This document shows, in pieces, positions 11,001-39,000 of a stretch of 64,000 nt of DNA. The DNA is from Marsupella aquatica (taxonomy: Eukaryota; Plantae; Marchantiophyta), in NCBI GenBank assembly GCA_973895155.1, contig OZ316891.1, positions 29,680,331 to 29,744,330 of the forward strand, given 5' to 3'. Every line of letters begins with the position of its first letter. The first letter of the stretch is position 1. The notes under the pieces are model-generated. The model did not search any database and was not told the DNA's origin. It saw nothing but the letters and a program-made list of their open reading frames with translations. Made by a program: the position numbers and the translations under genes.

Positions 11001-11071
11001 GTGTGAGTACCATCAGGGTGACTTGACTGCATTTCAAAATGGGCAGATTTTTTTTAATCTTAGACTATGTT

Positions 11072-11248
11072 TGTCGTGACATATAGTATCGTAGCCATAT
11101 AGTGTATCGAAAACATACAAGTCACCAGCAATGCATATGTGCAAGCTGCTAGCAACCAACATGCATAGAAAAAGTTCAATCACATTCACAAGTGCCAAAA
11201 AAAGCAAGTGAGGTGGTATGTACGTAGTGGAGGTATAAACCTCTGTAT
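11072..11248. repeat. Element 1 repeat A, copy 1 (177 bp, terminal)
   Basis: Near-identical to 11613-11790; two differences seen. Confidence 0.95.
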
Positions 11249-11610
11249 ATAAAAGGCGTGATAGAAACAAACGTACTGAAATCGAATCGAAAACCGGCGA
11301 GATGCCAAGATCGGCCGGGAGCATCTAACGAATCACTGTGTGAATTCCGTGTACGGAACCGACGAGCAGCCTCTGAAAAACTCTGTCTCACAACGATTCA
11401 AGAAGAACTGAAGAACGGCAAAGAAAAACATGCCCTAAGTAGGACCGGGTCCAGGCGTCACACTAACAAACCCCTTTTGCTTCAAGAACAGCCCAGACTC
11501 GCTACAAGAACATGACACTAACTCAAGTAGTACATTAGCCCTAACCATACCTAGCGGGCATGCGAGGGACATGCCGATGTGCACAAGCGGCACTGTCCCT
11601 CGGCATGACA
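11249..11610. repeat. Element 1 repeat B, copy 1 (362 bp)
   Basis: Near-identical to 20468-20829; ORF-track peptides 11258..11515 and 20477..20734 differ at one residue. Confidence 0.95.
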
Positions 11611-11612
11611 GC

Positions 11613-11790
11613 TGTCATGACATATAGTATCGTAGCCATATAGTGTATCGAAAACATACAAGTCACCAGCAATGCATATGTGCAAGCTGCTAGCAACCAA
11701 CATGCATAGAAAAAGTTCAATCACATTCACAAGTGCCAAGAAAAAGCAAGTGAGGTGGTATGTACGTAGTGGAGGTATAAACCTCTGTAT
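11613..11790. repeat. Element 1 repeat A, copy 2 (178 bp)
   Basis: Begins TGTCATGACA, two bases (gc) after the end of B copy 1; ends at ...acctctgtat next to the C8 tract. Confidence 0.95.
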
Positions 11791-11798
11791 CCCCCCCC
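11791..11798 (-). promoter_or_regulatory. Polypurine tract (G8 on the sense strand) of element 1
   Basis: Sense ...ctGGGGGGGG|atacagagg: about 30 bp after the pol stop (11831) and immediately before repeat A. Confidence 0.7.
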
Positions 11799-11830
11799 AG
11801 ACCACAGTCAAAAGGAGGGCTGAAGAAAAG

Positions 11831-14800
11831 TCAGATAGCACGTGGAGCACAGGAAGGGCAAAACCATAACCCTTCTGGCACCTGGGTAAGTTCAGGCCGA
11901 AGGCAGAAAAGATGGTACCCTCCATTGCAATTGTCACACAGCAGCATCTGGTCAGCATCATCAATTCGCAAACACACTTTGCAAGGGTAGTCCACAGGTG
12001 GAATCCAAGTAGAAGTCACAATGGTGGGATCCAGGTTAGGCAGATGACAAGGGGCGCAATTCTTGGCATTGTCAGCAATTGTGCGCCCATCTGCCCCTTG
12101 TAACTCTAGCACTCCAGACGGTCGAATAGCTTTAACCCTGAGAATAGTACGACTGGTAGAGGTGTCCAGGGTGTCGTTAGCTTACCGCTGCAAGTACACA
12201 AAATCTCCCACATCAAACTTCCTGACCTTGGGCTGAAAAGTGCCACCTCGTGTGTGTGCATAACGCAGTGTGTCCCTGTGCTGTGCAATGGTCAAATTCT
12301 CCATGGCCATGGGCATAACCCTCCTGAATAGGGCAGCCCTCTCAGAGATCACATCAGACCAAGTCACAGCTGAATCCAAGTCCACCACCTGAAGCATGTG
12401 AGCAGCAATAGTAGAAGGTGGAACTGGGTGACGATCAAACAACAAGAAGTAGGGAGAAAAGTTAGACAGTGATGCATGTCTGGACATCCTATACCATGGC
12501 AATGTAGGGTAAGGCCAGGTCCCAATCCTCCTTGTTTTTGGTGAGGCAGATCTTCCAGAGACCCTTCTTGCATGTCTGAACCATGCACTCTGCCAAGCCA
12601 ACTGCCTGTGGGTGATCTCGTGATGTCCGGCGATGATCAATGAGGGCCTGATCAAGCAGCTCCTGGAACTCTCCTCTAAACTCTGAGCCCTGGTCAGTGA
12701 GACATTATGCACAAGCTCCAAAGCGGTTGAGAACTTGTTGTAGGAATGCCTGGCTGGTGCTACGGGAGGTCTTATCCGGCAATGCCACAAGTTCTATCCA
12801 CTTGGAGAAATGCTCTATCATGATCATGATGTAGAGATTACCCCGAGATGTGAGGGGTAATTCTCCAGCCAAATCACATGACCAACGATAAAACATGCCC
12901 TGAATAGGGAGTGGATGAAGTGTGGGTTGCCGAGATGTGAAAGAAGTCCTCACCCTATCACACTGTTCACACCGGGCAATAACATCTTGAACCTGGCCAT
13001 GCATGCCTCTCCAATGATAATGAGGGACCAAGAGGCTGTAAGTCCTCTTAACGCCAAAATGACCAAGCTCAGAATGTACCTTACGGATAAGGCCAACCCT
13101 CTCATGAATGGGTGGAACCACCACTTCCCTGTCTAGCAAGCAGCGCACGAGATGATCTCCCTTCCACAAGTAGCGCTTGGACCTTTGCTAAATTCGGTCT
13201 CTCTGGGCAGCAGTAACATGTGTGGGGTACTCCCCATGCTGCAGAAATCTCAGAGTGTCGCTGTCCTCCCATATGTCCACCACAGGTTGGTCAACAACAT
13301 AGCATGGCAGCAAAGCAAGATAGGTCGATGCATGAAATGTAGGCAGGATGGAAACCTGGTCAAAATCTTGCCGTGCATCTGAGGAATCATCAGAGGTAAT
13401 CAAAGGGCAGCTGGACATAGTGTCAGCATTCTGATGTGTCACACCAGGCCTATGAATTACCTCAAAATCATACTCCTGGAGTATGAGCGCCCAACGAGCA
13501 AGCTTGCCAGTAAGCTTGTCGTTGGTCATCAACCACTTCAAGGGCTGGTGGTCGGTGTAGAGAATAAACCTGGTCCCATAGAGGTAGGGCCTATAATGTA
13601 TGACAGCCCACACAACAGCAAGGCATTCACCCTCATAAGAAGAATAATGACTCTTTGCCTGATTGTTGCTCCTGGATGCATAGGCAATGACGTACTCTTT
13701 ACCTTCCTCATCATGCTGGCCCAGAATGGCACCAATCCCAAGGGCACTCCAATCTGTGTGTAGCACAAAGACCTTGTTGAAATCAGGTCTTCTCAGCACC
13801 GGGTATTCTGAGAGCTTCTCCTTCAAAGTGGCAAATGCTGCCTCAGCATCTGTACTCCATGTCCAAGTCACATTCTTTTTCAACAAAGCATACAATGGGT
13901 GTGCAATGGTACTGAAATCTTTGATGTAGATCCGGTAGTAATTGCACAACCCAATAAAACTCCTCAAAGTGTGAACATCGGTAGGAGTGGGCATTTCCAA
14001 GATGGATACCACCTTGGCCCAGTGAGCCATGGTTCCATTTGGAAGAATGCGATGCCCAAGATATACTACTGATCTGACAGCAAATTCACACTTCTTGGGG
14101 TGTATCTTTAGGTTCACCTTCTTAAGCCTCATGAATAGCTCCTCAAGGTCAAGTAGATGCTGGTCAAATCCTTTGCTGTGGACCAACACATCATCAATGT
14201 AGCATTTCAGAAACTCAGCACCTTGCAGAACCTGGTCCATGACTCTTTGAAAGAATATGGGCGCATTCTTCAAGCCAAATGGCATCACCAACCACTCCCA
14301 TAGTTGGTTACTACCATGGAAAGCTATTTTCTTGCGATCCTTTGCAAGCAGCAAAATCTGGTTGAAGCCTTGCCTTAGATCCACAAGAGTGAAGATGTTT
14401 GAGTCTCCAATGCTGTCAAATAGCTCCTCTGGCCGCGGCATGGGGTACCTGTCCTGAGGTGTGACCAGGTTCAATGGTCTGTAGTCCCCACACATGCGCT
14501 TCTCTGTCCACAATCCACTGGAATCCTTCTTTGCTGGCATCACTGTAGCTGCCGCAAAATCTGATGTAGATGGCTGAATAAGACCAGCTTCATAAAGCTC
14601 TTGGCACCTCTCATCCACCAGCTGCCACTCATGCTTACTCAAACGGTGTCTCCGCCTAAAGATAGGTGTTTCATCAGCCAACTCAATGGAGAACTGCATA
14701 GTCTTGCACTTACCCAAGTCCTTCATAGAGAAAGCAAACACATTCTTATGCTTGAGGAGAAAATTCAGCAGCTGGTCCTTCTGTCTTTTACTCAGGTGGT

Positions 14801-17800
14801 TGCCCATGATAAATGTGTAGTTGGCAACACTAGGAATAGGACCTGATGTACTCGTGCTTGAAGAGCCAGAAGTGCCAGCCTCTCCACTGTCCAAGCTGCT
14901 AGCATGCTGCTGATAAGGTGATGAGGCCTCTCCAAGGCCTGCTGTATCTGTTGCTCTGGTCTGATCCACACCATGAAACTCAGAAATAATGTCAGCCACA
15001 TTACAAGGGACCTCCTCCCCCCCAACACTTGGACTGAAGCGGTGAGTGTTGAATAGAGGTAAGTGCACCTGGTCTGGATGCCATGTAGCAGCACTATGGA
15101 GGGGTAGGGCTGGAGCTCCTAATGCTGGAGGAATGTACATCTGAAAAAGGATGCAAGTGACCAGAAGCCAAGTGAGAGCATTGAGATCCATTACCCTGCC
15201 AAGTAAAGCATTCCTGGCCAGCCTGGTGATTTTGGTGTGACCTGTAGTACCGGGTTGGAAGCCCATAGCCCGTTCTCTCTCCTCAGGACTAGGTTCATCC
15301 CATGTACCGGTAGAATGTCGATAAACCAGCCCAGGACCATCACCCTGAAAAGCATGTGCACCTGGAAAGGACACAAATGTAGGCCAAGCAGCACGGGGTT
15401 GTCCAATGGTATTAGCTGGATACCAAGGTGCTGGCTCATGCTGTGTAACTGGTTGGCAAGAACTGTCAGGATCCAAAATCTGGTCCACTGTAAGGTTAGT
15501 GTCCCTGGATGTGTGGTGAAGAGCCATCTCCAGCAAGGAAGGTGGTGCAAGGTTAGTCCAAAAGTTACGAAGACGATGTGCATAAGAACCACAGTGCACT
15601 GCATCAATGAGAAGGGGTGGTCCCAAGTAGTGCTGGACCACACTGAAATCCTCTTTGACCTGTGGACGCTGGTCAAACTGAGATGGAGTATTCTCAATGA
15701 TATAACCAACAGCAGGATAAAGGGATTGAGCCCAGGTGAGAATCTGAACCAATGCTGTGAAAAGGCCAGAACGAGAATCATGCAGTCCAGCACCGTGACC
15801 AGCAGCTGAAAACCCTTGGCATTCCCAACCAGCTATGATCAAATCAAGGGAGCCAAGAAGGTTTAAGTGCCGGTGCTGGATAAGCTGGATATCTGGAGGA
15901 AAGAAAGAAAATGCAGACTTCCATGCACTGTGTGGAAACTGCTGAGGAAATCGCTCTGAAAATTCCAGCAGACGGGATTCAGCCACTTGCCTTGCACCTG
16001 GATCAATATCCACATAGATGTACTGCTTCACCACCATGCCAGACTGTAGGAGAGCTTCCAGGCCTGTAGAAATGCCACCAAAAAGCTCAAGCAATGTAAG
16101 GCCATCTGAAGGAGGAGTCCATGTAACTGGTGCGCTCAAGATTGGGGCTATTGGTTGTCCATGATGCTGCCCAAGGTCCTCAAATTTGTGCAATGCAGCC
16201 ACCAAAGGTCCATGGGCTGCTTGGAGCCGTTGTACCACCTCTGGTTGATGATCCACGTTGCTGGAAAGTGCTGCTACACGTGCAGCAACATGTGCAGTAG
16301 CCACCTCATCCTCATCCTCCTCAATCCAATCCTGCAATGGGTGGTTGACATAGGTAGCTGTGTGCACTGCTTTCAACACACAGTGGTGAGCCATAGGTGT
16401 ATGGGCACCATGCAAATCAAGTGGAATGTAGCCCAAGTGTGAGCCATCCGTATGCCAATCAACTCTGTAGTATGCATGCTCATGCCAATTGTCAATGGTA
16501 AAACCTGGTGGGAACAAAGCCTCCTGGCCAATGAGCACATCATACGTAGTGGCATTGGTAACCAAACATCTGACTGGGAAATGCAATTCCTGATCTGTAC
16601 CTCCATTAAAAGTGAGAGTGAGTAAAGTAGAACTCTCACCCAGCACATCCTCCATAGTGCCACTAGCAGTCCGAATGTGCCACCTGGATTACTGTAAATG
16701 ATCAGTCAACAGTCCCATCTTCTTGGCAAACTGAATGCCCAATATCACTGGTTGAGCACCTGTGTCTAGCATGACCACCTGAGGAGTGTGACCCTCCAAC
16801 TTGACTGCTGAATTCTTGTTGTCAACAATGGCAATGGTGGTGGAAACTAAAGTCCTGTCACTAGGCACCACTTTTGGCAAATGATGAGGTACCTTGTGAA
16901 GGGAGTTAGTGTCCACGGTCTTTCCACTCAACAACATAGCCAGGAAAGATGGAGCAGCATGACCAGAATCAAGTGTAGCTCTGGTCACACAATCAGCAGC
17001 AATCGGTACTAGGGCAGCCAAACCAGTGGAAACATGTAAAGGAGAAGAAAAAGGTCCAGTATGTACATGAGATTGGACCTCCAAAACCGGTGTCACAGGG
17101 GCTGATGAAGAATGCAGTGAGCCCTCTAGCGCTCTGATGACAGCTCTAGCATCCAACTGTAAATCATGGCAACTGAAAAGTGGAGTTGTAAGAATCCTTT
17201 GTGCCATACCGGAGGTGAAATGCTCAAGCAGCTCAGGAGAAACAACTCCCTGTGAAATGTCAGCAGCACCTGGTGGTGGAATGGATGTAGCTGCAACTCC
17301 CTCCCCCCTCGCCAACAAGGTGCGCTCTTCAGCAAGTGTGAGTGGCTGAAAAGATTGGGGCAGGACAGCCCGAGCGCCCCTGGCTCTAGTCAGAGGACCG
17401 GCAACAAGACCATCAGCCTGTACAATGCGGCGTGTGGGAGCAATACGGGAGGCAGCACTGGCCTGTTGGTAAGCAAAATAGGAAGGGCAGAATGAATCTG
17501 AAAATTCTGCTGTAAGGCCAGGCTGTGGAGCAGAGGACAGCACACACTCACCCATATGAGCATCAAATGGTAAGCCATAGAAAGAGCGGGGTAGAGGTGC
17601 TGAACTGTCAGCGGTGCCTGGGCCAGGGATGGGTTGCACGTGACCAGCCGGTTGAGAAGGACCAGCAGAGGCAGTGGACTTGCCTTTGATGTTGGCAAGT
17701 TGGGCACGTAAGGACTCAACCTCATGAGTCAGAGACTGGAGTTGAGTTGCCTGTGCGTTGTGAGCCTCCTTCTGAGCTGGTTGCTTCTGTGGCTGCTTGG

Positions 17801-19193
17801 GCAATTTGTTAGCACTGGGTGCTTTGCCACTGGAAGGAGGAGCAGTGGATGCAGTAGGAGCCCTCCTAGCTGGTGGGGGAGTGGAAACAGGAGCAGGATG
17901 AGTGGCCTGCTGTCGTAGCTGCTTCCTCTCGGGGAATTTGGCAAAACAGACTGCCTCCAAGTGGCCCACTTTCCCGCAAAAATCACAAGATAGGTCCTCA
18001 GCAACAATATCACATTCATTAGCCTTGTGATTAGGGTTACCACAGTAGTTGCAAGATGGCAGCATGAAAGCAGCATGTGCTGGCTTGGTCTTGGAACCAT
18101 ACTGTGGCACACGGGGAGGAGTGACCAGTGTAGGGGCAGCAGCCTGGTACCTAGATCGCGGTGGACGTGCAATACTGGCCTCATAATGTGCATGGGCCAA
18201 CTCAAGTTTATCAGCAGTGTCATAGACATTGAGCAAGGTGTAGCTGTCTCCAAACTCTGAGAATACTTGTTGCAACACTTGCGAATGGAGAGCTGGTGTG
18301 CCCTCCAATGCACGAAGATAGCGATGAGCAGCTTCCAGGTCAGTGATGCTCTGGGTGTCCTCCTTCAGCTTGAGAAGCCGGCGATACATCATCTTCAATG
18401 TTTCATCGCGCTGCCTCACAAAGGTGGCCAACTGCATGATTTTGTCAGCACTCTTGATTGGGAATTCCAATTCAAGAACCTGGAAAAACTCAGCCACTGG
18501 ATCAGCAAAGGCAGGGGAATCAATGGTGGGAGAAATGCCTGATGTAGCCTGTGCCAAGACAGTGGGAGTAACAGGCGCAGTGGTAGGAACTGGAGTAGGA
18601 GGGGAAGTGGCAGGAGCAGCAGCATGGGCTGCAATGGCATTTTGTAAGGCCAATTGTGAAGCTGCCGCAATTGCACTGGCATAGGTAGGGTTAGGCAACT
18701 GTGTGACAGCAAGCAGCCGTTGAGAGTGCTGCTCATACACATCTAAAGCCTCATGGTGCACATACCTGGCTAGCTGCTTAAATGCAAACGCATTTGTGAA
18801 ATTGCTGCCGTACTTCAACTCCAATTCGTAAACGCCAGTGTAGAAAGTGGATTTGAACTCACGTAAAGAGACAGTGCCTGGCCGCCCGCTGAAGCGCTCA
18901 ATGCGGCCAGATGAGTGGCTGGCATCCATGCTGTATGTCGGTGAAGTAGGAACAACCACTGATGCAGAAGGGGTAAATGGCAATGAAGTGATAGCAGGCT
19001 TCGGAGTAGTGGTGAAGCGACTGCCAAATGTAGCAGGAGGATTGCGTGGTGTGGGTGCTGCTGCTGTCTGTGGACGTCGTCGAAATTGATGAGACTCCAA
19101 TGAAATTGGCACCAATGGTCGTGGATCACTCCGTAAGTGGTACCGGGGTGTCGGTGGCGATGAGCTGCTACGACTCGGCTCCTCTGCTGACAT
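11831..19193 (-). pseudogene. Element 1 gag-pol polyprotein: one ancestral frame with in-frame stops at 16689, 13188, 12705 and 12182 and a frameshift near 12490
   Basis: Two CCHC knuckles (CNYCGNPNHKANEC, CDFCGKVGHLEAVC); protease LDTGAQ; RT RMCGDYRPLN...MPFGLKNAP...YIDD; RNase H LHTDWS...YEGECLA; integrase HxxxGH...CxxC, WSCD, LTDQG, GLAE; PHD CKVC...LLCDNCNGGYHLFC...WFCPSC. Confidence 0.9.
15160..16100 (-). CDS. C5 cytosine DNA methyltransferase domain (DNMT3-like) in frame between protease and RT of element 1
   Basis: Motif I LELFGG, II YVDID, IV AGWECQGFS, VI IENT, VIII AHRLRNFWTN, IX ERERAMGF, X LLGRVM. No stop within the domain. Confidence 0.9.
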
Positions 19194-19615
19194 GCTGCAT
19201 GCTCACCCGGGGTGCCTAAATCGAAAATGTCCCCCTTCCCGGTGGTACGAGGTGCTGAGGGGAAAGAAACTGACAAGAAAAATGGGTGCTAGCCCCAAGG
19301 CTAGGAAATAAAACCCACAAAGGAAACAACCGTGCGAGGCAGAAATGTGTAGACTGGCCCTGCCGAAAATATACTCACAAAAAAAATGAACAGAAAGAAA
19401 ACAAGAGGAAACGGCGAAAAGGGGCCTCCATTATGTGTATAGATAGGGGTCTGTGTATACACATAACATGTGTATACATCGTCGGGCTCCCTGGAAGAAA
19501 AAGAGGCCGGAAAGAAGCAGGTGTACGCACACTCGGGAGGCACGGTACCCTATGCTGCAGGGCGAGGCGAGGCGAGGCTGAGCGAGGTGACAACTTAATG
19601 GCTCGGGCCCTGCAT

Positions 19616-19956
19616 AGGGCTTCGTGCCCCACTATGAGCTCCCCCTATCCCCCTTTTGGGCCTTGTGCCCTGGCAGCGAGTGACTCCCGAGAGAGGAGTC
19701 GCGAGTACTCCCCCCCTCTTTAAAGCTGAATTAAGGGCTTCGTGCCCTGCAGGAGAACTCCCATGTGAGGGAGTTCGAATTGAACTCCCCTCCTCCTTGC
19801 ACACTCGCTCCCCCTCCTTCCTGCTTTGGCTTGTACTTGGCTCCCCCTGCCCCTGCTTTAATGTTGCTTAGGGCCTCGTGCCCTCTCCTGCGCTCCTGCC
19901 TCCTGCCCTGATTCCCCCTATCCCTGCTTTAATTACTCCATAGGGCCTCGTGCCCT
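19616..19956 (-). repeat. Five repeated stem-loop motifs (A)GGGC-ACGAR-GCCC(T) in the element 1 leader
   Basis: + strand copies at about 19616, 19658, 19734, 19870 and 19942 (gggc[ct]t[ct]gtgccc). Confidence 0.75.
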
Positions 19957-20455
19957 CCGTCCCCCCTCGCTTGCTTGTGGCAGGGCGACGAAAAGGAAGG
20001 GAGTCGATCCCCCTCCCCTTGTGGCAGAAAAGAAAGGAAGAAAAGGGGCGTTGCGAGGGGGAGAAATGGGCGCGCGGCCCTATGCACTTGGGAGGTAATC
20101 GCGGGGTGGCCGAGGCTGCCAGGAGGTGGTCGCACGATGGTCGAGGCAGCCGGGAAGTAGTCGCGCGACGGCCGGCAAACACCGAAAGAAAAATGGCCCA
20201 AATAAGCACCGAAAAATGCCGAAAGTGGTGGATGAGTCGTGCAGTCAGCAGTCGGCAGCCATAGTCGAGTTGCGGCCGACAAGAAATATCCGGGCCCCTT
20301 GTTATGTGTATACACTTAAGTATACACATAACATCACAATAAACCCATAACTTTTAACTCGTCACTCCGATGTCCGTCGAAGAAATTGCAATGGCTTCAC
20401 CAGAAATTGTCAAAATCGTCACGAGCAATCTTCTTCCCGTCACCGCTAACTCGAG

Positions 20456-20469
20456 AGTTCTTCTTGAAT
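20456..20469 (-). promoter_or_regulatory. Candidate self-priming primer-binding site of element 1
   Basis: agttcttcttgaat (20456-20469) is the exact reverse complement of attcaagaagaact (20615-20628) inside repeat B. It abuts the inner end of B; no tRNA-type TGG PBS is seen. Confidence 0.75.
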
Positions 20470-20829
20470 AAAAGGCGTGATAGAAACAAACGTACTGAAA
20501 TCGAATCGAAAACCGGCGAGATGCCAAGATCGGCCGGGAGCATCTAACGAATCACTGTGTGAATTCCGTGTACGGAACCGACGAGCAGCCTCTGAAAAAC
20601 TCTGTCTCACAGCGATTCAAGAAGAACTGAAGAACGGCAAAGAAAAACATGCCCTAAGTAGGACCGGGTCCAGGCGTCACACTAACAAACCCCTTTTGCT
20701 TCAAGAACAGCCCAGACTCGCTACAAGAACATGACACTAACTCAAGTAGTACATTAGCCCTAACCATACCTAGCGGGCATGCGAGGGACATGCCGATGTG
20801 CACAAGCGGCACTGTCCCTCGGCATGACA
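20468..20829. repeat. Element 1 repeat B, copy 2 (5' end of the element on the sense strand)
   Basis: Direct repeat of 11249-11610; ends CATGACA followed by the TSD. Confidence 0.95.
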
Positions 20830-21002
20830 TGTTGGACATCCTTACCTATATCAGCCTTTAACTCTTAGAACCTCTCAAAACCCTTTAATTTATATTCTCT
20901 TTGGACCCATCCAATCCAAAGCTCTGTGAAATACACCCACTTGCAGTGTGACTCACTCAAGGCATTGTACAGTGGGCCCAAATACACCTCTCATGCAATC
21001 TA

Positions 21003-26060: not shown

Positions 26061-27381
26061 AATTCTGAGTTTTCGAGTAATTATGCTTGTGAGTGGGGAC
26101 GGGCATGGGAGTCTGGGTGCAAGGAGCCCTTCCTGTGTATACACATGGGTATCCGGGCTAGTACCTATTGAAAATTTCAGTGGGGACAAAAATTAGGTAG
26201 TTTTACAAAAAAGAGAGTTTTTTTTCAAAAACATAGTTTAGGTATATTCTAGTCAGCATTTTAATACAACTCTGATATATCAGTGTATGGATCATATTTA
26301 AAATAAACAAATGAAATCTACTTAGATATTTATGGCATTGCACTAAATATGATAATTAATTAAGGGTGATTGTCCGTCCCTAGGATAGTGGGCCAGCTCA
26401 GGTGGCCAGGAGGTCTCAATTTCAATCCACGCCCTGACAATTTTTTCCAGATTCTGATCCTACTCTAGCATCTAGTATGTGTTCATTTGTACCAAACCGC
26501 TTTTGGAGGGTAAAATGTGTTGTGCATATGTGCTTGTGAGGGTAAAATGTGTTGTGCCATATGTGCTTGTGGTAGTTGTAGGTATAATAAAATAAACAGC
26601 TTTTTAGTAACCTGTCCCCCTAACTGCTCGAATTTAGCATCCAGTCCCCAAAATGAAGATATTTATAACCTGTCCCCCTTTCCGTATGTGGGTTACCAGT
26701 AGTCGTATACTATGTGACCTGAGCTGCTTGGAGAGGCGCTAGTGGCCTACAATTTATCTGGCAGTATCCCTGGTCAGCCCTTCCCCATTTCTCATTGCGA
26801 TGCATCCTGGGAAAGCCCGATACGTTTTGCACGTACATGCCCTCATTTTTCCTCCCGAAAACATTTCACAAATGTGCACACATTTCTTGATTGTCCGGTG
26901 TCATCTTCGGTTCGATTACATTTCATTCTTTGTGCTGGCTGTGGCTGAGGACGAAGATCATGCTGGCGAAGGGAGACCAACATGTGCTCATTCACAGGTT
27001 CTTTTCGGGTGAAAGACAAGAAGACACAAAATGCAGTCTCCCTTGTCACACCATTATGAGTAGTGTAGTAGTATATCGTGCTATTAGAGTATGTACGTTT
27101 GGTATGAGTGCTATTGAAGCCGATAAGGTTCCATCAGGTTTGTGTGAGAGGGTACTTCTCACTTGTGAGGCAATGAAAGGTCATCTTTCAATGTTGAGCC
27201 TTGGAGAGAGAGGAGCTTGAGGAGCCTGAGTGTGGCTATGGTGGCTGTGAGCTCCGCTTGTGTAACGTGGATTCCTTGAGTAGTGCAAGGTGCGTTGGCT
27301 TGACATACGTTTGTGATCGGATCGGTGCGGGATCGATGGGGTATTGTTGACCGGGATCATTGTGCCGATTGTATTGAGATT

Positions 27382-27393
27382 ACATTGAAAGAT
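27382..27393 (+). promoter_or_regulatory. Candidate self-priming PBS of element 2
   Basis: acattgaaagat (27382-27393) is the exact reverse complement of atctttcaatgt (27183-27194), which is preceded by tc (TCA Inr-like). It lies about 340 bp from the 5' end, versus about 360 bp in element 1. Confidence 0.7.
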
Positions 27394-27887
27394 CAGATGC
27401 GAACTCTGTTGTGTGGACTGTGCAAACAGAAGTTCGTTTCGGATTGATTGAGTTGGTGACGGTTTGTGGAAATCGTTTCAATCTGTTGCGTGGATCCGTG
27501 GTATCTCGGATCTCATTGAGTAGATCGTTAGTCCTTCAATCTGCTGCAGTTTGTGTTGGCGAATGCTATTTTGAGGAAAGAGATCACAGATCGTTGAAGA
27601 TCGCAGATCGCTCATTGTGTCACCGGATCTGGGCACATAACGCTGCTGTTGTAGCCGAGTTTGAATGTTGGTTTTTGTGGAGGAAAGCATTCTGCGAATG
27701 TTGGCGGATCGTCGGACAGTGGAAGTCATCCGCAAGGCTTTAGATCTGATTTTCGACTACTGCGATAAGGCGCAAGTGAAGCGGCGATCTGCCGATGCTC
27801 CGCGCGGTTATGTGGAAGGGCCAATCCGTGCGAAGTTGCTGCAACTCGCGGATCCGATCGGCAGGGCGCCGACTGCTCGCAGCTGAT

Positions 27888-28062
27888 CCGCAACTCTCGA
27901 CTGTCCGTCGTTCTGTGAAGGGAAACTGAGAGACGGAAATCTGAATGTTGCCGAAACTCGATTTGGCGTCCGTCGCCTGCTGATTCGCAACTCCCGACTG
28001 TTCATCGTTCTGTGAAGGGAAACTGAGAGACGGAAATCTGAATGTTGCTGAAACTCGATTCG
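27888..28062. repeat. Tandem duplication (about 97-bp period) in the element 2 leader
   Basis: cgcaactc.cgactg...tcgttctgtgaagggaaactgagagacggaaatctgaatgttgc.gaaactcgatt occurs twice. Confidence 0.85.
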
Positions 28063-28770
28063 GCGTAGCGGGCGTGAAGGGCTCACCCTTTGGCTCATCT
28101 CGGCATTTTGAGGCTCCGAGGCAACTCGTGGTTACTCGGGATGAGGGGCGTGAGGGTGGAGCAGGAGCGGGCGGGCTTGCTGGTACGTGAGGAGTACTTG
28201 CAAGTGCTGTCATTTTGGAGTGGCAGATTTGGTGCATAATGACAAGTGAGAGGTCACCCATCCCAAAGCTATTCCTCCTCTCATGCGCTTAACTAACAAG
28301 TTTCTATGTGGTGCATTGTACATGCTTCCTTCCACATTTGATGTCCAAGGAATGAGGCCCTAGGGGTTTTATGCACTTTTGAATTCATCTAGATACTCTA
28401 TTTTAGCTAGTTTGCGATGGATTCTTGAATATTTGACCCGGGATTCTTGAAGCCTATTATGAAGGCCCTACATTGAACTATATGCACATTATTTACATGT
28501 ATTTCTGATTGATTGGTGTGGAGAGTTGTGGTAAATCCTCTTCTTGTTGTTGGATCCTCTCCACACATGCTTCCTGTTTATGCGCCATGTTAGTTTGGCG
28601 TGGGCGCTTGATTCTATAGGAGTGATCCGGGTTTGCAACCGGACATTCTAGTTGTGCTATGTATTTCTCTCCTGGTGATGTTGGAGTGATGCCCAACACA
28701 CCATGGTGAGTGTTTGTGGTGCTGACAGGGATAGATTGCCTTTAGGGTTAGCACATAGATTAGGTTAGGG

Positions 28771-31700
28771 TTGGTCACCACGGATTCTTCTGGTGCTGCT
28801 GGATTACCCGATGAACGACGGACCGGTTTCACTCGGAGTGGGGCACAGTTTCGGCCAGCGGCATTGGTAGCAGTCAGCAGTGCAGCTTCAGATAGTGATT
28901 ATGATGAGGACTCAGTGACCAGTTCTCCTCGTCATCAGGTGGTTGCACCTTTGTTGTGGGATATGGACGAGATGTACGGGGCTACAAAGGGCCCACGACG
29001 ATACTCTGGTGCAGTTGGCACAATTGATCTGGATGACTTCATCCAGGAGTTTGATACGTGGTGCGATATGCAGACATTGCGTAACGTCACGTTGTTTACC
29101 CCTTTCATGGCATGGAAGAGATTATTTCAGCATTTGGAGGGGCCACCCATGGATGACTACCATGAGTTTTGGAAGGCTCATTTGGTTGAGATTGAGGCAT
29201 GGAGGCAGCATTGGTCACCTAATTACGTGTCCATCACCTATGGCACTAGTGCGGCTGCCCAACCCATTGCCATAGCTATTGCCTCTTCTAGCAGCACTAG
29301 CCAGAGTGGCACACCATCCACCAGCAGCACTCCAACAGCATCCACCGCTACTCCTACCGGTGTGATTGTGACAGGAACTGGAGTTGCGCCAGCATTTAAT
29401 CCTGTGGTGGAATTCTTTGAGGTACTGAAGCAGAACTATCAGGGTGTGAGAACTGATAAGTTGACGGGTCTTCAGGAGTTCCAACGCAAGACTGGAGAGA
29501 GCCTACGTGAGGCATACACACGTATGCGCAGATTGATCACTGTCACCAAGGGAGTGACAGAGGCTCAGGCAGTCCAGTTTTGGTATGCAATTCTGGATAG
29601 AGAATTGTGACGTAGAGTGAGAGATGTCACTCTGCTTAGGGATGCAGATCCCACATTAGCAGTTGTTTTCACCCTTTCTGAGCGCATTGAGCTCAATATG
29701 GTGAATGAGAAGGTGGTGACTTCTGGATTTGCCAAGGAAGCACCAAAGGCTGCATCTACATCCACACCACAGCCTATTGCACGGAAGAGCCAGAGGGAGA
29801 AGCCTACTGCATGAGAGTCTACCAGCCAGAGACCTGTGTCCTCTTATGCTGGACAGCAGTCAGGATGTTGGACCTGTGGTGGGGATCATGCACAGAGATA
29901 TTGTCCAGATCATAGAGGATCAGGGGGAGCATCAGCGCCTGATCAGCGACAGTGTGATCACTGTGGAGCTCCTGGACACACCAAGGATAGGTGTTCTCAC
30001 TCCATCCTGAGTTACGGAGAGGAGGATCCCGTACACATGATCAGGGAAGAGGAGGAGGAGGTAGAGGTGGTGGACGTGGTCGTGGCATGCCACATGCAGG
30101 GAGACAGGGAGGTGACGCTGCCCCTGCTGTAACCATAGATCCAAAGGATGCTAAGATTGCTCAATTGGAGCAACAGCTAGCTGCCATGGCTAGTTCCCAA
30201 GTGAGACCTACATCTGGTGATGGGGCATCTACATCCTATGGACCTTCCACATCCCATGGTCCTTCCACATCTTATGGAGCTGATGGAGATCTTGCCACCA
30301 TGGGATTCATGTGTGGCACTGCACATATTGATGCATCAGCAGCTTTAACACGTGGGGCAGCCAAAGCTCTTGAGCCCCGAGGAGCAGTAGTGGAGCTAGA
30401 TCCACAGAGGGGGGATGCACGTCGGCAGACAAAGCTTCCTCAGTCTTTTACATTGTCAGAGACAGTTCACACTGCCTCTATGAACCCTGTTTGGACAAAC
30501 CCTGATGTGGGTAAGTTGGCAGAATCAGGTAGTGATGCAGCAGGGATGACAAGTACCTTGCTGGGGGCGGCTACTGCCATGGTACGTGCCCCATTATTTT
30601 CAGCGGCAGACATGCTGAACTTGGGAGTTGGTCCTGCATAAGTGTTTAGATTGGCAGCTACACTCTGTGAGGACACTCTAGTTGTTGCTTCCCATGCAGA
30701 AGCAACTTGTAGTGTTGAAGCAGTGAAGACCATACCACCTACTGCTACTCGTGAGACATGGCATGCAGCAGCAGCGAGGTTGGTGGATTTACCAGCACGC
30801 CCTGCATTTGAGAGGACTAGGTTTAAACCTAGTGTTGTGTCATTGGATAATCGGAGTGGTATCTTTCGATTAGTTGGGCCTTCTGGAGCAGTATACCAGC
30901 CAGAGAGAGTGTTACTGGACGCTGGTGCTCAGCCCTTGATGTTGGGGAAGTCTGCCATACATGGATTGAGATTGCGTCCAAAGGATTTGGAGGATTGTCC
31001 CTTTCCCATTCAGACTTCATTGGGGGGACCTACACCTACATAGCATATCACCAGGAGACCACTTGATTTGAGGATTTAGGAAGGTCATACCATAGATAGC
31101 TCACAGATACAGGCGCGAGCTATTCTAACTAAGGCAGAGTCATATGATGTGTTGGTGGGATGTACAGTGCTCTACCCCATGGGATTTATTCTTGATTTTT
31201 GGGAGGAATCAGTGTCATATAGACCTGATTGGCAGTCAGGAGATACTCGATTGAGAAAATTGCCAGTGAGATTTAGTGGACCTGTGGGAGGCCCTAAATC
31301 CACACCATTGTCTTTGGCAGCATTCAGTTGTGTAATTGCTGGACCTGATGATTTGATTGAGGGTAATGCGCATGCAGCCGATGTTCCACCATTGGAGGAG
31401 TCTCATGAGGAGCACATCATGCGAGGATTACCTGTTGGCAGTGTTGTGCCACCAGTGTGGGGCACTGCACAAGCCTTGCCACAGGCAGCAGCACGATTGG
31501 TACATGATGCATGGCGTCATGCTTTTACACCACAGTCAGGAGTAGAGCAGTCTCTTGCAGATGGACCTGTGACTCTTTCACCATTGGATACCACTCCTAT
31601 TGCTTGGCAATATCCACCGGAGGGTATTTGTTTGTTGGATCTTTTTGGTGGGATTAGCACTGGATTGGCTGCTGTTCTTCAGGCAGGAATTCCTGTGCGT

Positions 31701-34700
31701 CGTTATTTGTATGTGGAGACAGATGAGACAGCACGGAGGGTCTCATTGCGACATGTGGCTATATTGGTGGATAGATATCCACAGTTGCTGCCAGTGGATG
31801 CTGTTCGTGGTTATCAGCATGCACTACCTGCTGATATTTCATTATTGGGGGCGGATCATCTACATCGTGTTGGCCCCATTGATTTGGTGATTGCTGGTTG
31901 GCCATGTCAGGGCCAATCTAGAGCTGGCATTGGGCATGGACTTCATGATCCACGCTCTGCATTGTTTTGGGAGATGTTACGGGTGCTGCGTCATCTCCAA
32001 CTACATCAGACACAGTCTCCAGCATACATTTTGGAGAATGTGCCATTGTTAGGTGATGATCATAGTCGGATTGTTGCCAGTGTTCACCAGGTGAGGTCTT
32101 GGATTGGACCTGCTGTGTTATTGGATGCTGCACGTGTGGGTTCTCGTGCACATCATCCACGCTTGTGGTGGACTAATTTGATCCCATGTGAGGTGCTGAA
32201 GCACGCATTTGACAGCATTCCACGCTCACCAGCCTTAGTGGTGGATGATATTTTGGATCCAGGGCGTCGGGCATAGGGTGTGACCCAACCTGATAGACCT
32301 CCATTGGCAATGGTCAATGCAGTTGGGTGCCCACGTTGTGCATTACCCACTCTTGTAAGCCACTCTGCTTCATATGCATTCAGAGCAGGTGGCCTTGGAC
32401 TTGTGTGGGACACAGCTCTCCAGCAGTTAGTGGAGCCTACTACTAATGAGAGAGAGCGTGCTATGGGATTCTTGACTGGCACCACTACAGTTGCCTCTGT
32501 GTCAGAGGGTTTGCGACGCCAGGTTCTTGGTCAAGCAATGGACCTGAATTGTTTGACTTGGATTATCAGCTTGGGAGTAGCTGAACAGTTGCGGATGCGC
32601 TCTGCTGGAATTACTGATTGTCCCTTGGTGAGCTTGCGGTCCACTGAGACAGTATTGACCACAGCTGGGGGTGAGCAGACAGTCCATGGACCTATGGCAG
32701 GATTGGCCAAGGCTGGACAGATTGTTGAGTAGGAAGGGACTGCTTAATCTACTGCTAAATAGCAATCATCGGCTATCTCTTCTACCCTACAAAGAGATAT
32801 TAGGGATTTGGTGGAGAGTTGGGAACCACAGCTTGGCCCTAAGTTAACAGGGGAGGAGAGACGTCGCATGCATCGATTCCTGAAGAGTTATTGGAATTGT
32901 TTTGCATTCAGCATGAAGGATTTGGGGACACTGAAGGGCCCTGGTATTCAGATTGAATTGGCTAGTGATGCGCCAATCTTTCGTAGACCATACCGTTATA
33001 GTGACATGGAGAGAGCTCTGATTCAAAGCAGAACTCAAGATTTGTTGGAGGCTGGATTGGTGGAGATTTCATATGGGGAGTATGCATCTACCACAGTGAT
33101 GCGAGCCAAGAAGGATGTGCATGGCAATTACACAGATAGGCGCATGTGTGGTGATTACAGACCTATTAATCGCCAGACAAAATCTGATCGATATGCCATG
33201 CCCACACCTGAGGAGATCTTTGATGCTGTGGGGCATGCAAAGGTTTTCAGTTCATTGGATCTGAGGGCATAGTACCATCAGCTTCCAATTAGGCATGCTG
33301 ACAGGTCCAAGACAGCATTCTGGGGGATTGATTCTTATGGCAAAGATCATTTGTATCAGTGGTTATTCTTACCATTTGGGTTGAAGAATGCACCAGCTGA
33401 GTTCCAGAGAGTCATGGATCGAATCCTTGCAGGTTTGGATTTTGTCAGATGTTATATTGATGATATTTTGGTCTATTCTTCTACTGTGGAAGAACATCAA
33501 CAGCACTTGCAGATTGTGTTAGAGAGATTGAGAGCACATGGGTTGAAGCTCCATCTTGGCAAGTGTAAGTTCTTCCAAGACCAGATTGAGTATTTGGGCC
33601 ACACTATATACCCAGAGGGATTGGGTGTACAGTAGACTAAAGTGGAGGCCATTACACAAATTCCTTGTCCTACTGATGTGAGTAGAGTTCGTGCATTCTT
33701 GGGATGGGCGAGCTACTACAGGAGGTATGTTAAAGGATTTAGCCAGCTTGCTAAACCTTTGACCATACTCACTAAGTTGGATCAGGAATGGATTTGGGGT
33801 GATGACCAGGAGCATGCCTTTCAGGAGTTGAAGCAAAGGTTGGCATCATCCCCTATTTTGAGAAGACCCATTTCAGGCAGACCATTTCAGCTACACATTG
33901 ATTGGAGTGGAGTAGGACTTGGAGCAGTGCTGACTCAGAAGGATGATGAGGGGAATGAGTTTGTTGTGGCTTATGCCAATAGATCAAACAATTCAGCAGA
34001 GGCTAAGTATAGCTCTTATGAGGGAGAGTGTTTGGCAGCAGTGTGGGCTGTTGCACACTTTCGTTGCTACTTGTTTGGTAACCCCTTCACCTTGATCACT
34101 GATCATCAGCCTCTTAAGTGGTTAATGGAGTCTGACAAGCTTACAGGGAAGCTTGCACGATGGCATTGTTGTTACAGGAGTATGATTTCCAGGTGGTGCA
34201 TAGGCCTGGAAAAGTGAACTTGGATGCAGATGGATTAAGCCGCAATCCATGTACCAGTCAGCAAGATGAGACTGGAGCTAGATGGCATGATGAGTCAGAT
34301 AAGGAGATGGTGCCAGGATGGCATGCATCTGCCTTTCTTTGTTGGGTGCCAGCATACAGTGGATCTGTGGACTCTACCTCATTGGATGGAGTGGATGATG
34401 AGTCTTCAGATGTGGATGTTGGTGAGGTAACTTCTGGACAACAAGATATTCACAATGACGTGAGAGTGTTGGAATATCTGCGCAGTGGTTCTATTGTTGG
34501 CAGTGTTGATGCCAAAGAACGTGACAGGGTTCTACAAAGAGCCAAGAGGTTTCGATGGGAGGGAAACCATCTTTTGAGAGTACTGCATGATGATAGGATG
34601 TTGGTGGTACCAAAACCATCACAACAAGTATATTTGGTGCGACATGCGCACGAGGAGTTGGGTCACTTTGGTGTGAAGCGCACTTACAGCTTGCTGCAGA

Positions 34701-35886
34701 CACAGTATTGGTGGCGTGGTATGCACACTCATGTCCAGCAGTTGATAGCTAAGTGTGTGGTATGCGATAGAGTGAGAGCATCATTTAATGCTCCCACTCC
34801 CCAGTTGCACCCGTTGCCGATCATGGGTTTGGGATATCGTTGGAGTTTGGATTTTGCTGGTCCATTACCTCTTACCCAACGTCATAATCGATATGTTTTG
34901 GTCATGGTGGAGCACTTCTCCAAGTGGATTGAACTAGTAGCGTTGCCAGATAAGCCAGTGGAGGAGTTGCTGCTACATTTTTGGATCGTGTACTCAGTCA
35001 TTTTGGAGCACCAGCTGAGGTGTTGACTGATCAGGGAACTGAGTTCCGTGGAGAGTTTGAGAGTTTGTGTGAACAAGCTCTGATTGATCATCGTACTACC
35101 TCTCGTGATCATCCTGAGGCAGATGGATTAGCTGAGAGAGTTGTGCAAACTGTGAAGAGAGGATTGCGTAAGTATGGCTTGCAGGTTGGTCATCTGGGAG
35201 ATTGGGATCTCCAGCTACCTTGGTTAGCTATGGGCTACCATTTCAGTCGGCAAGCATCACTTGCATCATTCTCACCTTACTTTTTGCTCTATGGTAGAGA
35301 GCCAGATTTGCCAGCAGCTATTCGTCGTGATGCTGCATCAGTTGTGAACTTGGATGATCCTGATGTTTGGGTCAAGGTGTGTTCAGAGAGAGCACGGGTA
35401 TTTCAGCGAGTGATGCCCATGGCTTTCGACAACCTTGTCATTGCCCAACATCGTGATACTTTGAGGTATGCCACTATTTGTGGAGGAGGTTACCGTGCAA
35501 GCATTCGACGATTTCATCCTGGTGATTATGTTTATTTGCAGCAGACAGCACCCACCACACTTGATGTGACCGCAGGCCGGACAATCTTACGTGTGCGTGA
35601 AGTGTTGCCTTTTGGTGTCCTGATGTTGGAGGGACGCGATGGTATGGTTTGGAAGGATCATGTGCGCAACTGTGCACCATGTCACCTTCCCAACATTGAT
35701 GGTACAGTAGATCCAAGCTTGGCACATGTTCGTGCTGGCTTGAAATGTATGTTGTGTGGATCTGCTCAAGGAGCAGCTACTATGTTGATTTGTGATCAGT
35801 GTTCTAGAGGATGGCACATGTCATGTTTGACACCACCATTGCAGGTGATTCCTAGTGGATCATGGTTGTGTCCTCAGTGTCGGTGA
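28771..35886 (+). pseudogene. Element 2 gag-pol polyprotein, degenerate (many stops and frameshifts)
   Basis: Gag FQRKTGESLREAYTR; knuckles CWTCGGDH...C and CDHCGAPGHTKDRC; protease LDAGAQ; RT RMCGDYRPIN, LPFGLKNAP, YIDD; RNase H LHIDWS; integrase HEELGH...CVVC, WSLDFAG, LTDQG, DGLAER; PHD CMLC...ICDQCSRGWHMSC...WLCPQC. Confidence 0.9.
31623..32570 (+). pseudogene. C5 cytosine DNA methyltransferase domain in element 2 (one in-frame TAG at 32274)
   Basis: LDLFGG, YVETD, AGWPCQGQS (canonical PCQ), LENV, AHHPRLWWTN, ERERAMGF, VLGQAM. Confidence 0.9.
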
Positions 35887-36049
35887 AGCCGACTAGTTAT
35901 CATTTGTGTTCTCTTGGCAGATATGGATTGCAGGTAGGTGATCGATGGGGCTCACTTGCACCCGGCCTCCTGATCTTCACACCTAAAAAGGTGTATATCA
36001 ACCTTGTAGAACTCATGGCTAGCTAGAGTAGGGGACCTTACTCCCAGCT

Positions 36050-36056
36050 AGGGGGG
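36050..36056 (+). promoter_or_regulatory. Polypurine tract (AGGGGGG) of element 2
   Basis: G-run downstream of the pol stop and 140 bp before the CA terminus; same position as the G8 of element 1. Confidence 0.6.
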
Positions 36057-39000
36057 CGATTGTGGGTTTTGGACATGTGTGGACATGAGTTCCACTTGTA
36101 TTTCATTCTCTTGTGTTTGTGATGTGGCAGTATGACTATGTCTGGATGTATGTGACAAGCGATGTATGTTGTGTAGCGATATGTATGCACACGACACCCT
36201 GCGTTTCTGTTCAGAAAAATTGGGGGGCAAAAGCATTGGGCTTTTGTGAGGAGACAGGCACAACTGAGTCATTTTTCCTGGTACTGGGCCTACCCAGGAT
36301 GCATCGCGATGAGAAACGGGGAGGGGCTGACCAGGGATACTTCCCGGTAAACTGCAGGCCACTAGTGCTTTGCCACATGGCCCAGGTCACATAGTATACG
36401 GCTACCAGTACCCTACATTAGGAAAGGGGGACAGGTTAACAAATAATTTAGTTTTGAGGACTGGATGCTGAATTCAGGTAGTTAGGGGGATATGCTACTA
36501 AAAAGCTGTAAAAATAAATTGAAAATGTAAAGTAATCAGGGCTTTTCCCTGGTTGCAAACTACTTGTGCAGCTTGTTCAAAGGCAAGTTCCCCTTTAAAC
36601 GGGCCTTTAAAAAAAGATACAGAGAGAGCTTCTTGTTGGTGTAAACTACATATAACAACCCGTGTGCGACTAATTTGAATTTTAGCTAGTATGGACGACC
36701 AAAGAATAGCAAAGGCCATTACAGGGTCAGAAGCAACTCCTAGGCTAACTTTGTGAGACTGGTTGGTATTGATGAATTGCAACTCACCTTGCCAGCTAGT
36801 CTAGGGAGAAAAGTACAGGGATTAAGCCACTACTTTATGTTATTTTAGATAATTAAAATGCATGCCGAGCCTTTCCAATCTCAGTGAGCTCATTCTTACT
36901 TGGAGGAGTTGGAGGCCTTAAAGTCCTTCTGATCGATTGAATGAAATGGCATCATAGGCAACTTACCTTGCCAAGTTGTTATGGGATGACCAGTAGAGGG
37001 ATTAGGCAAACCAATTTTTTTTTTGCACTGTCTAATTCTGTAAAGTACAAAGCCTACTCTAATCAAGGTAAACTTGTTCTAACTTGAACGAGTTGGAGGC
37101 CACAAAGTAGTTTGATGGAGAATCCAATTCATTCCGCATATTGGAGTCGTCAAATGATATTACATTCCTAATATAAACTTGTCCCCTGAACTGTCCCCAT
37201 TAATTGTTTAGATAGAGGAAGAGGGTAGGGGGGGCAGGGGAGTATTTGAAAATTGATCCGTGGACCCCCATGTTATTCTAGAAACTGAAGCCTAGATGGA
37301 CCTCCCAATCTAAAGAATTTTTTTTTCAAAAATGGACAAGTCAATGTTTGACATTTGAAATAGTTGCCAAACTTACCAATGCAACCATAATTAAGATCAA
37401 ATACAAAACCAGCTTTTAGAACTAAATCTATCAATGTTAGGTTCATTAAAAAGCTAAATAAATTTTAAAATTCATAATCTACTTAGTACTCGATAAAATC
37501 TGTTAATTTTAGTTTCATTCTGATGAAAGGGGTCAACATTTCAGGGGTTGTATAACAAAGATTTCTATTCACATTAGAGATTATGAAATCACGGGTAAAA
37601 TTTATTTTTCAAAATTACTTACTCAATTCTTATCGAATGGTGACAATGTTGAGCTCATCAGGATCGTCTCTTCAAGATCTTTCTAACGCCATAATTATAC
37701 GTGAGTTTTTATTATGATTTGACTCAGCAATGTCAAATCAAAAATTGTTATCGGGAAAATTTTATGTTTTGAATAAAATCAAAATGGACATAAAACCGTT
37801 ACTGGGAGCAGTTTCACCTCAATTTTTTACATTCTTTTTTACGGCACGGCGTCCCAATTTTTACAACAAAGTTGTCACAAACACGAATGTAGAAGGTAAT
37901 TTTATCCAAAAACAAGTATTTTCCTGTTTGCGGCGTGTCATGGTGAGGTGGCGCACTGTGGAGCCAGGAATTTTGGAAAAGACCTCTAATGGGGGTCCGT
38001 AACCAGTGTTTGGAAAACAACATTTGTGCAGAGTTTAATTGGGGATTTCTCAAAATTGAAGACCCCATGGACCAGCCCTACTTGGATGGACTGCCATTTT
38101 TCCAAGTTTAGAGTATTTCCCATTTGTAAATCTATCTTGAATGTTTTGGTCAAAAGTACTCTGGTCCATGGGGTTGCAAGGTTCATGAATGAGAATGGTC
38201 CATCCAAACATAAAAGTTTGGAATTTCTGTGAAGCATTGAACATTCCAACATAAGTAATGGCGTACATTTCTTTAGAGAAAAACCAACAAAAAGTACCCA
38301 AGTGGGGTTTCAGATAGCTTGGTTACAAAGATAATTAAAATGAAATAAAAAATATAGTGACAAAACTTGAGACCCTTTATGTGAAAGCCTGGAAGAATTT
38401 TAGGCCACTAGATAGAAAATAACTTCATTCTATTTCTTGTTTAGTAGTGTCAACTTTGATTTCACAATCATGGTTTGTTTTGAATGCATGCAGAAATTTT
38501 GTTGGCAACCCAGAAATAAACTAAATTAACTTTTCACTGTTGTGACACCAATTCTGAGTACTGGACATGAGAACTCAGATGCTCCCCGAACCCGTCCCCA
38601 AATGACCATAATGTAAAGATGAAATATTAAATTGCCTGAAGCAACAGTTTACTGATAATCATATTTTCACCACATGACCAGCATAATTTAGTTTCTGGTT
38701 GACTCCCATGGTGGAGTGTCCTGTCTTCACACTGGAAGTCCAGAAATTAAACTTTTCCATTCTGAAAATTACTGTCGCTCAGCTAGCACCTCTCTCTCAT
38801 TTAATTGCTCAATGTTTTGATTGTCAGCAAATCTGGTCCATCTGAGTCCAGAGGTAGAATTTAAAAGTCCATCCAAGCAAAACCTTTCCTTCAAAGGAAA
38901 ACACGGTCTCTCCTTGAAACCTTGTTTCACCTGTTGCATAGCCGCATTTCCTCAGCTAGGGAAAAAAAGATTCACTGCTGCTTTTTATTCAGGTAATCAT

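Follow-up and report, generated by a model that had tools for sequence, protein, structure and literature searches.

Whether circles carrying two long terminal repeats (2-LTR circles) can integrate productively has been argued since the 1980s. The subject here is element 1, a retrotransposon in a 64,000-nucleotide (nt) stretch of Marsupella aquatica DNA (the whole stretch is called the window below) in which gypsy-type genes lie among split direct repeats, A and B. Judged from their products, element 1 and its relatives insert, with a probability of roughly 0.93, through an attachment site lying inside the long terminal repeat (LTR). Such a layout is noted once in print, for KnitGypsy-Dnmt3 of Klebsormidium nitens, and without a mechanism: the legend of Fig. 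4c in De Mendoza et al. 2018 records DIRS-arranged repeats and Gypsy domains, and Fig. 1e gives the DIRS arrangement as A-coding-B-A-B (PMC5890265; statements on published systems refer throughout to the accessible parts of the papers cited). KnitGypsy-Dnmt3 resembles element 1 in its Gypsy domain set, its cytosine methyltransferase in Pol and its split repeats of the DIRS type. The accessible account differs in giving no TG and CA ends, target duplication, position of the primer-binding site (PBS) or polypurine tract (PPT), internal site, repeat-less form or mechanism (PMC5890265); the comparison is with the published description, and the Klebsormidium DNA ends form no part of it. The name KnitGypsy was found in no paper beyond that one in a literature search, which, at the level of titles and with Repbase Reports and subscription journals outside its reach, also found no internal attachment site in a gypsy element and no 4-bp duplication, repeat-less form or polarity for this layout. 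The accessible part of bioRxiv 10.64898/2026.05.21.726589 contains nothing on repeat layout. A reading made earlier from the letters of the window alone (the original prediction) had taken the combination to be undescribed; this holds for the internal site within the reach of that search, but not for DIRS-type repeats joined to Gypsy domains, which the 2018 legend records (PMC5890265).

Among the other systems to be compared, PAT, Ngaro and VIPER carry split repeats in the order A1-ORFs-B1-A2-B2 (ORF, open reading frame), always in one polarity, and use a tyrosine recombinase (PMC6681497). Element 1, in contrast, has a gypsy-type reverse transcriptase (RT), TG…CA termini and a 4-bp duplication, and no tyrosine recombinase family was matched (Pfam) in any of the 21 ORFs of at least 100 amino acids, read from stop to stop, that overlap it, in agreement with the original prediction; it does not belong with these elements despite its split repeats. 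Nor does it belong with Troyka, which has CG…CG termini and a 3-bp duplication. With canonical Ty3/gypsy elements (Metaviridae) it shares the order protease-RT-RNase H-integrase, the HHCC and DDE motifs, TG…CA ends, a 4-bp duplication and a PPT, and with the self-priming Tcn1 and Tf1 chromoviruses a self-priming PBS (PMC6317226, PMC12440569). It differs from canonical Ty3/gypsy in that there is no pair of complete LTRs, that PBS and PPT adjoin different half-repeats, that the site is internal to U3, and that it has a PHD finger in place of a chromodomain and a methyltransferase in Pol; the PHD finger at the integrase C-terminus likewise speaks against membership of the Tcn1 chromoviruses. Element 1 descends from Ty3/gypsy retrotransposons and is gypsy-like as far as the complementary DNA (cDNA), yet we do not class it among the canonical elements of that group.

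Cleavage of abutted ends by enzymes of the DDE type is known from two directions. In vitro, the integrase of foamy virus cleaves the palindromic LTR-LTR junction, which has a 2-nt spacer, behind the CA of either strand, and the cut gives two processed ends with 2-nt overhangs in one reaction (PMC1180852). The likeness to element 1 lies in the CA cut at a palindrome with a 2-nt spacer; however, the junction cut by the foamy virus enzyme is the ligated U5|U3 and its cleavage restores a normal provirus, whereas in element 1 the U5|U3 junction stays internal and the ends come from a different, inherited site in U3. Integration of HIV-1 2-LTR circles is a related system (PMC4372172). The DDE transposases of the IS3 family (IS2, IS911), which belong to the retroviral integrase superfamily, insert from abutted ends separated by a short spacer in a circle junction; these are, however, DNA elements whose transposase rebuilds the junction in each cycle, whereas here a fixed sequence is copied by reverse transcription (PMC3219604).

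Organisation of element 1

Read on the minus strand, element 1 has the order B1(362)-PBS-leader-gag/pol-PPT-A1(178)-GC-B2(362)-A2(177), starts with the TG of B1, ends with the CA of A2 and lies between two copies of TGTT (Table 1). The repeats are nearly identical, with A1 and A2 differing at 2 of 178 positions (one substitution and one 1-nt indel; self-BLAST E 4e-85) and B1 and B2 at 1 of 362 (self-BLAST E 0). A1 adjoins the PPT and B1 adjoins the PBS, so that the LTR as reverse transcription would define it is A-GC-B, with A1 as the putative start of U3 and B2 comprising, in all likelihood, the distal part of U3, R and U5. The direct fusion of the B2 end to the A2 start at 11248/11249 would then be an end-to-end U5|U3 junction. 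The order of parts, the ends, the duplication, the positions of PPT and PBS beside A and B, and the presence of an HHCC-DDE integrase had all been read from the letters in the original prediction, and the window coordinates bear them out; the self-priming PBS, the methyltransferase and PHD finger in Pol, and a second element in the window are additions to it.

Table 1 Features of elements 1 and 2 (window positions; TSD, target-site duplication)
Feature	Position	Strand	Remarks
Element 1			
TSD TGTT, left copy	11068..11071	.	4 bp
A2, terminal repeat A	11072..11248	-	3′ end of element 1, closes in CA
B2, internal repeat B	11249..11610	-	
16-bp palindromic attachment site CATGACA-GC-TGTCATG	11604..11619	.	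at the A1-GC-B2 junction, within the LTR defined by reverse transcription
Spacer GC	11611..11612		2 bp, between A1 and B2
A1, repeat A	11613..11790	-	immediately 3′ of PPT
PPT	11791..11798	-	G8 on the sense strand (eight C on the plus strand)
Integrase and C-terminal PHD finger	11831..13187	-	HHCC, D-D-E core
pol ORF	13188..16688	-	1166 amino acids; protease end, C5 cytosine methyltransferase, RT, RNase H
C5 cytosine methyltransferase in pol	about 15130-16110		Pfam match at residues 266-321
RT in pol	residues 728-881		
RNase H in pol	residues 944-1073		
gag and protease start	16689..19202	-	837 amino acids; CCHC-type motifs (by eye)
PBS	20456..20467	-	self-priming type
B1, 5′ terminal repeat	20468..20829	-	starts TG
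TSD TGTT, right copy	20830..20833	.	4 bp
Element 2			
Element 2, diverged relative	27044..36196	+	repeat-less B-internal-A; 27040..36200 with TSDs
B	27044-27381	+	338 bp, starts TG
PBS	27382-27393	+	self-priming; 12-nt pairing with 27183-27194
PPT	36050-36059	+	
A	36060-36196	+	137 bp, ends CA

The PBS of element 1 does not look like a tRNA site. It is complementary to 20617-20628 within B1, about 200 nt into B, and the pairing becomes a perfect 14-nt complement when 2 nt of B are counted; this self-primer places a putative transcription start near 20628. The 12-nt pairing between primer and PBS is present in both the minimum free energy and the centroid folds, the stability of which is no better than that of shuffled sequences (z 0.12). 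A leader of 1.25 kb separates the PBS from gag.

The gag and pol ORFs are divided by one stop codon. Pfam matches comprise the C5 DNA methylase, RT, RNase H, the integrase H2C2 domain and PHD, with the protease below the cutoff and rve, at 31 bits, slightly below its cutoff of 32.6. The cytosine methylase PF00145 is above the cutoff in both elements of the window; its catalytic motif near pol residue 290 reads EC, as it does in 6 of 12 relatives checked, five of the others having PC and one giving no match. The integrase retains the D, D and E motifs, and its frame is disrupted by stops and one frameshift, so that this copy is probably dead and no longer functional. The left flank at 10833-11006 is a high-copy repeat with many loose contig ends in one sequencing run, and related copies lie near 48046-48148.

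Ends at the internal site in related elements

Element 2 of the window, whose RT-RNase H is 52% identical to that of element 1 and whose gene order is gag-methyltransferase-RT-integrase-PHD, is bounded on both sides by the 4-bp duplication CCCT, and comparison of its two ends found no repeat common to them. An ordinary LTR element cannot yield this end structure, which is the outcome of opening a unit A-GC-B-internal at its GC. Inverted repeats of about 220 bp, 82% alike, flank element 2 at 26596-26818 and 36286-36509, and element 2 may be nested in a Mutator-like element or a miniature inverted-repeat transposable element.

An alignment of nine integrase C-termini served to scan metagenome contigs, in which a sister family was found. 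The scan matched 598 stretches, of which 488 were confirmed, and the counts given here are for the best 80 loci, which are 74-87% identical to the first row of the alignment; the same insertion recurring in different samples was merged by eye from its flanks. On the 3′ side of the PHD finger the repeat order is A alone in 40 loci, A-B-A in 23, A-B in 6 and no repeat in 5, the remainder falling into three patterns, with two loci in each, that result from shortening or interruption of A. In terms of distinct insertions, about 31 end at the first A and about 27 have A followed by B; about half of the copies are thus of the repeat-less form B-internal-A. A purine run precedes the first A match in 73 of 75 loci, and the two misses are likely L057 and L068, where a shortened A1, itself preceded by a G run, was passed over by BLAST. 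As for the six A-B loci, two reach the edge of their contig, one breaks off within B, in another (L063) no more than the final few bases of A follow B, and the remaining two are a single insertion that stops at the end of B. That insertion (L051 = L053) is the only one among about 58 distinct 3′ ends to depart from an end at A-CA.

Both ends are present in 12 loci representing 11 distinct insertions. Exact 4-bp duplications at the internal ends are found in 8 of these 11 (chance 5e-17), three of them in the two-repeat form (L003, L049, L062) and five in the repeat-less form (L029, L036, L052, L061, L064 = L072). L062 terminates about 15 bp inside A, at an upstream GACA repeat, and its duplication tracks that end; apart from the use of this repeat, the A/B breakpoint does not wander between copies. 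No complete copy with A-GC-B at both ends occurs among element 1 and the sister-family loci, and no solo B-A among the 80 loci, which were picked by their integrase and are a poor sample for solos. These family-wide ends and duplications support the claim of the original prediction that the integrated ends lie at a fixed site inside the LTR; full LTRs at both ends or a breakpoint varying between copies, either of which it had named as refuting, did not turn up in the loci compared. In one further insertion the ends (L016:2037 and L016:11101) suggest a 6-bp duplication and a retained, spacer-like 2-nt AC after the terminal CA, perhaps from an insertion with one unprocessed end. At L001:1805-1929 the A-CA end of a copy abuts an inverted B piece of another copy, a nested insertion or self-insertion.

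The family of element 1 itself was sampled as short contigs in 4 of 13 sequencing runs (7 studies) with matching sequence, in which, by a rough measure over the 4 runs, the summed contig depth over element 1 exceeds that of the unique right flank about 100-fold to more than 1000-fold, indicating a high-copy family. No RNA run is listed among the 13, which carries no message about expression. A more distant family was represented by two loci (L081 and L082) in a scan of genome contigs, with an integrase 55% identical to the query. Both are eukaryotic retrotransposon contigs filed in the assembly of a cyanobacterial genome, where they are probably contaminants of moss or algal origin. Each has a PPT, a 106-bp A, GACA-GC-TGTC and then B; L082 reads A-GC-B-A with two identical 106-bp A copies followed by flank, and L081 is a circular contig with 127-bp overlapping ends in which a single A-GC-B is followed by a self-priming PBS. 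The core, in the form GACA-NN-TGTC, is present in three families, and the ends are derived from it in the fourth; the rest of A and B gave no BLAST match between the window elements and the sister family. A self-priming PBS adjoining B1 and a PPT adjoining A1 are found in all four families. A scan of viral contigs gave 20 pattern matches and no relative.

This recurrence bears on whether element 1 is an ordinary LTR element that was rearranged on a single occasion or misassembled. The window is imperfect elsewhere, with bacterial-like DNA joined to plant-like DNA near 2100, no contig from the runs spans element 1, and the contig at its right junction reaches 28 nt into the element, less than the 31 nt required. 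However, the same anatomy is seen in element 2, in dozens of sister-family insertions and in the distant family, with exact duplications at internal ends, and the 2018 legend records the layout in Klebsormidium (PMC5890265). Recurrence across families refutes such an accident as a general explanation, and we hold it to be very improbable.

Inherited and newly made junctions

The two junctions between repeats differ in their variability. All 31 sister-family A-B junctions have a spacer of 2 nt, reading AC in 11, GC in 9, GT in 8, AT in 2 and AA in 1, and 30 of the 31 are GC or a C-to-T decay of GC; a spacer constant in length and derived from GC implies that the A-GC-B junction is inherited. 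The B|A junction, in contrast, varies over 25 loci: 12 have an extra T, which matches the first base of the PBS, 8 are two bases shorter, 1 has an extra G that may be a remnant of the PPT, 2 are small variants, and 2 loci (one insertion) have lost 214 nt of B. The variation suggests that the B|A junction is made anew. Leftovers of this kind are typical of joined cDNA ends.

Comparison of the repeats within and between copies shows that in 16 of 19 insertions A2 is nearer to the A1 of the same insertion than, on average, to the A1 of others (sign test p 0.002), and B1 is nearer to its own B2 than to the mean in 5 of 5. After correction no column separates A1 from A2, nor B1 from B2. Both repeats therefore look regenerated from one template in each cycle, as LTRs are.

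Route of insertion

Given these junctions, we consider it somewhat better than an even bet that the integrase cuts the internal palindromic CA-GC-TG site of cDNA whose ends were first joined as a 2-LTR circle, the DDE integrase being the likely agent of insertion at the internal site. On this route the RNA would start about 200 nt into B1, prime itself at the PBS and end in B2. By standard retroviral reverse transcription the linear cDNA would be A-GC-B-internal-A-GC-B, the true ends of which lack TG and CA. The B|A junction would then form where host end-joining connects the end of U5 with the beginning of U3. As the products suggest, the integrase would next cleave the PBS-side palindrome behind the CA of either strand, so that both ends are processed and carry a 2-nt GC overhang, and would insert these ends with a 4-bp stagger. 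The final product, B-internal-A-GC-B-A with a 4-bp duplication, is the step of the route that is observed. The repeat-less B-internal-A could arise from 1-LTR circles, from pairing of a left-B with a right-A end, or by later A-by-A recombination; having no 3′ R, such copies would be dead ends.

Of the two sites, the one on the PBS side is the only one seen to be used. All six complete two-repeat copies (element 1 and five loci) are in the form found in the window, for which the probability under equal use of the two sites is 0.016. That form would be the only one to keep the 3′ R and the whole of U3, and hence the only one able to replicate by the standard route. Some polarity bias from the data is possible, as short-read assembly may break more often at the close B-B repeat. 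The choice of one side could plausibly come from timing: the left LTR would be double-stranded after about 0.5 kb of synthesis following the second strand transfer, the right LTR only after about 9 kb, and the integrase would load on the left site first.

A number of observations weigh against these readings. First, the mirror form B-A-GC-B-internal-A is absent from 14 5′ ends (13 distinct) in sister-family loci. A free circle has two equal sites, so the mirror form would be expected as often, and a randomly opened free circle does not fit. In the original prediction a 2-LTR circle was opened at one internal site; the use of an internal site stands, whereas a circle with two equal sites, which that course implies, is not supported. 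The timing argument that rescues the circle is itself a plausible proposal only, and no circle has been observed directly. The circular contig L081 fails as proof of a 1-LTR circle, since assembly collapse of the repeat B gives the same contig. Next, a single AT unit separates the two most frequent B|A types, a difference that later slippage could also cause, and a tree test of B|A inheritance gave 5 changes against a shuffle mean of 5.96, with 28% of shuffles as low, on a star-like tree of little power. As regards the ends themselves, the insertion L051 = L053 stops at the B end without A2, and 3 of the 11 complete insertions are without an exact duplication, with 3 of 4 bases matching in L080, none in L012 and L016 being atypical. 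Finally, the evidence at family level comes from short-read metagenome contigs of the sister family, the window's own family being seen only as fragments.

The single polarity is what would be predicted if extra template switches during reverse transcription built a linear B-internal-A-GC-B-A, the terminal A being copied from a transcript running through A2, and the integrase then used ordinary ends; a similar course has been proposed for split-repeat tyrosine-recombinase elements, and the layout is the same as that of PAT, Ngaro and VIPER (PMC6681497). We regard this as improbable, however. All four families conserve a PBS at B1 and a PPT at A1, as ordinary priming requires, and there is no PPT ahead of A2; A1 and A2 are not separate lineages, and it is the B|A junction that varies while the A-GC-B junction is constant.

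A different order of events would have the integrase cut the left internal site of linear cDNA and insert both cut ends, leaving the chromosome broken between B, with its end free, and the short A piece, whose start is free. End-joining of the break would give B-internal-A-GC-B-A and single-strand annealing of the A copies B-internal-A, with no need of a free circle. The final products and the variable B|A junction are identical to those expected from 2-LTR circles, and integration before joining further explains the many repeat-less copies (a single A closes 40 of the 80 loci) and the one-sided junction losses in L026, L063 and L051. On the other hand, the host would suffer a double-strand break at every insertion, one side of it carrying 9 kb of foreign DNA, most B|A junctions are within 2 nt of precise, and a separate reason is needed for the missing mirror form. 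We know of no precedent for integration followed by joining, and consider it unlikely, though less so than template switching.

Relatives in green plants

Among the best 120 of 2483 matches in a protein search with RT are proteins named from Calypogeia, Marchantia, Klebsormidium, Closterium and Haematococcus, many of them with PF00145 or PHD. A quick RT-RNase H tree of 55 rows was built from 49 of these 120 proteins, picked by name or domain, and six DNA-derived rows. Both window elements, the sister family, L081 and proteins from those taxa fall in one 35-row clade (Shimodaira-Hasegawa-like approximate likelihood ratio test, SH-aLRT, 99), which takes in all four Klebsormidium proteins tested (SH-aLRT 99), whereas chromodomain-bearing and Asteraceae rows fall outside; in this tree the outgroup is not one clade, long branches are flagged, and the references are search matches rather than curated REXdb or GyDB entries. 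One long-branched protein (P0088) is a candidate for KnitGypsy-Dnmt3. Three Gypsy proteins (P0096, P0107 and P0109) carry the adenine methylase PF05869, two of them with PHD, and branch beside the cytosine-methylase clade.

It is a tentative proposal, which we hold at slightly below even odds, that an old green-plant gypsy clade of charophyte algae and bryophytes moved its attachment site into U3, integrates obligately from 2-LTR circles and picks the one replication-competent site of two. The clade's own methyltransferase may mark the other site, the palindrome having CAG/CTG on both strands.

Other features of the window

Positions 1-2100 are bacterial-like DNA of 67% GC that gives way abruptly to plant-like DNA near 2100, which probably reflects contamination or a chimeric join; ORFs there resemble a Lon N-terminal-domain protein and a thioredoxin-domain protein. 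At 41843-43714 lies a 623-amino-acid ORF without evident introns, which we take to resemble a plastid-targeted sigma factor. Two tandem gene copies about 8.75 kb apart, with what we take to be P-loop and NB-ARC-like motifs, occupy 52000-64000 together with an inverted partial copy near 55840-57443.

Implications

In this lineage the inserted copies cannot derive from the linear cDNA ends, and a 16-bp sequence is defined as the putative substrate of the integrase; the ends made by reverse transcription and the ends used by the integrase are separated in this clade. The clade provides a route to a split-repeat layout that is otherwise tied to tyrosine recombinases. If the circle route is true, this would be the first eukaryotic retroelement known to follow an IS3-like circle route by means of a DDE integrase; it would depend on circles of a kind held to be a dead end in retroviruses, and may explain the origin of split direct repeats. 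Tools that require two matching LTRs miss these elements, and REXdb was built in that way (PMC6317226). With the family abundant, repeat annotations of bryophytes and algae may therefore miss a large class of elements that carry their own DNA methyltransferase.

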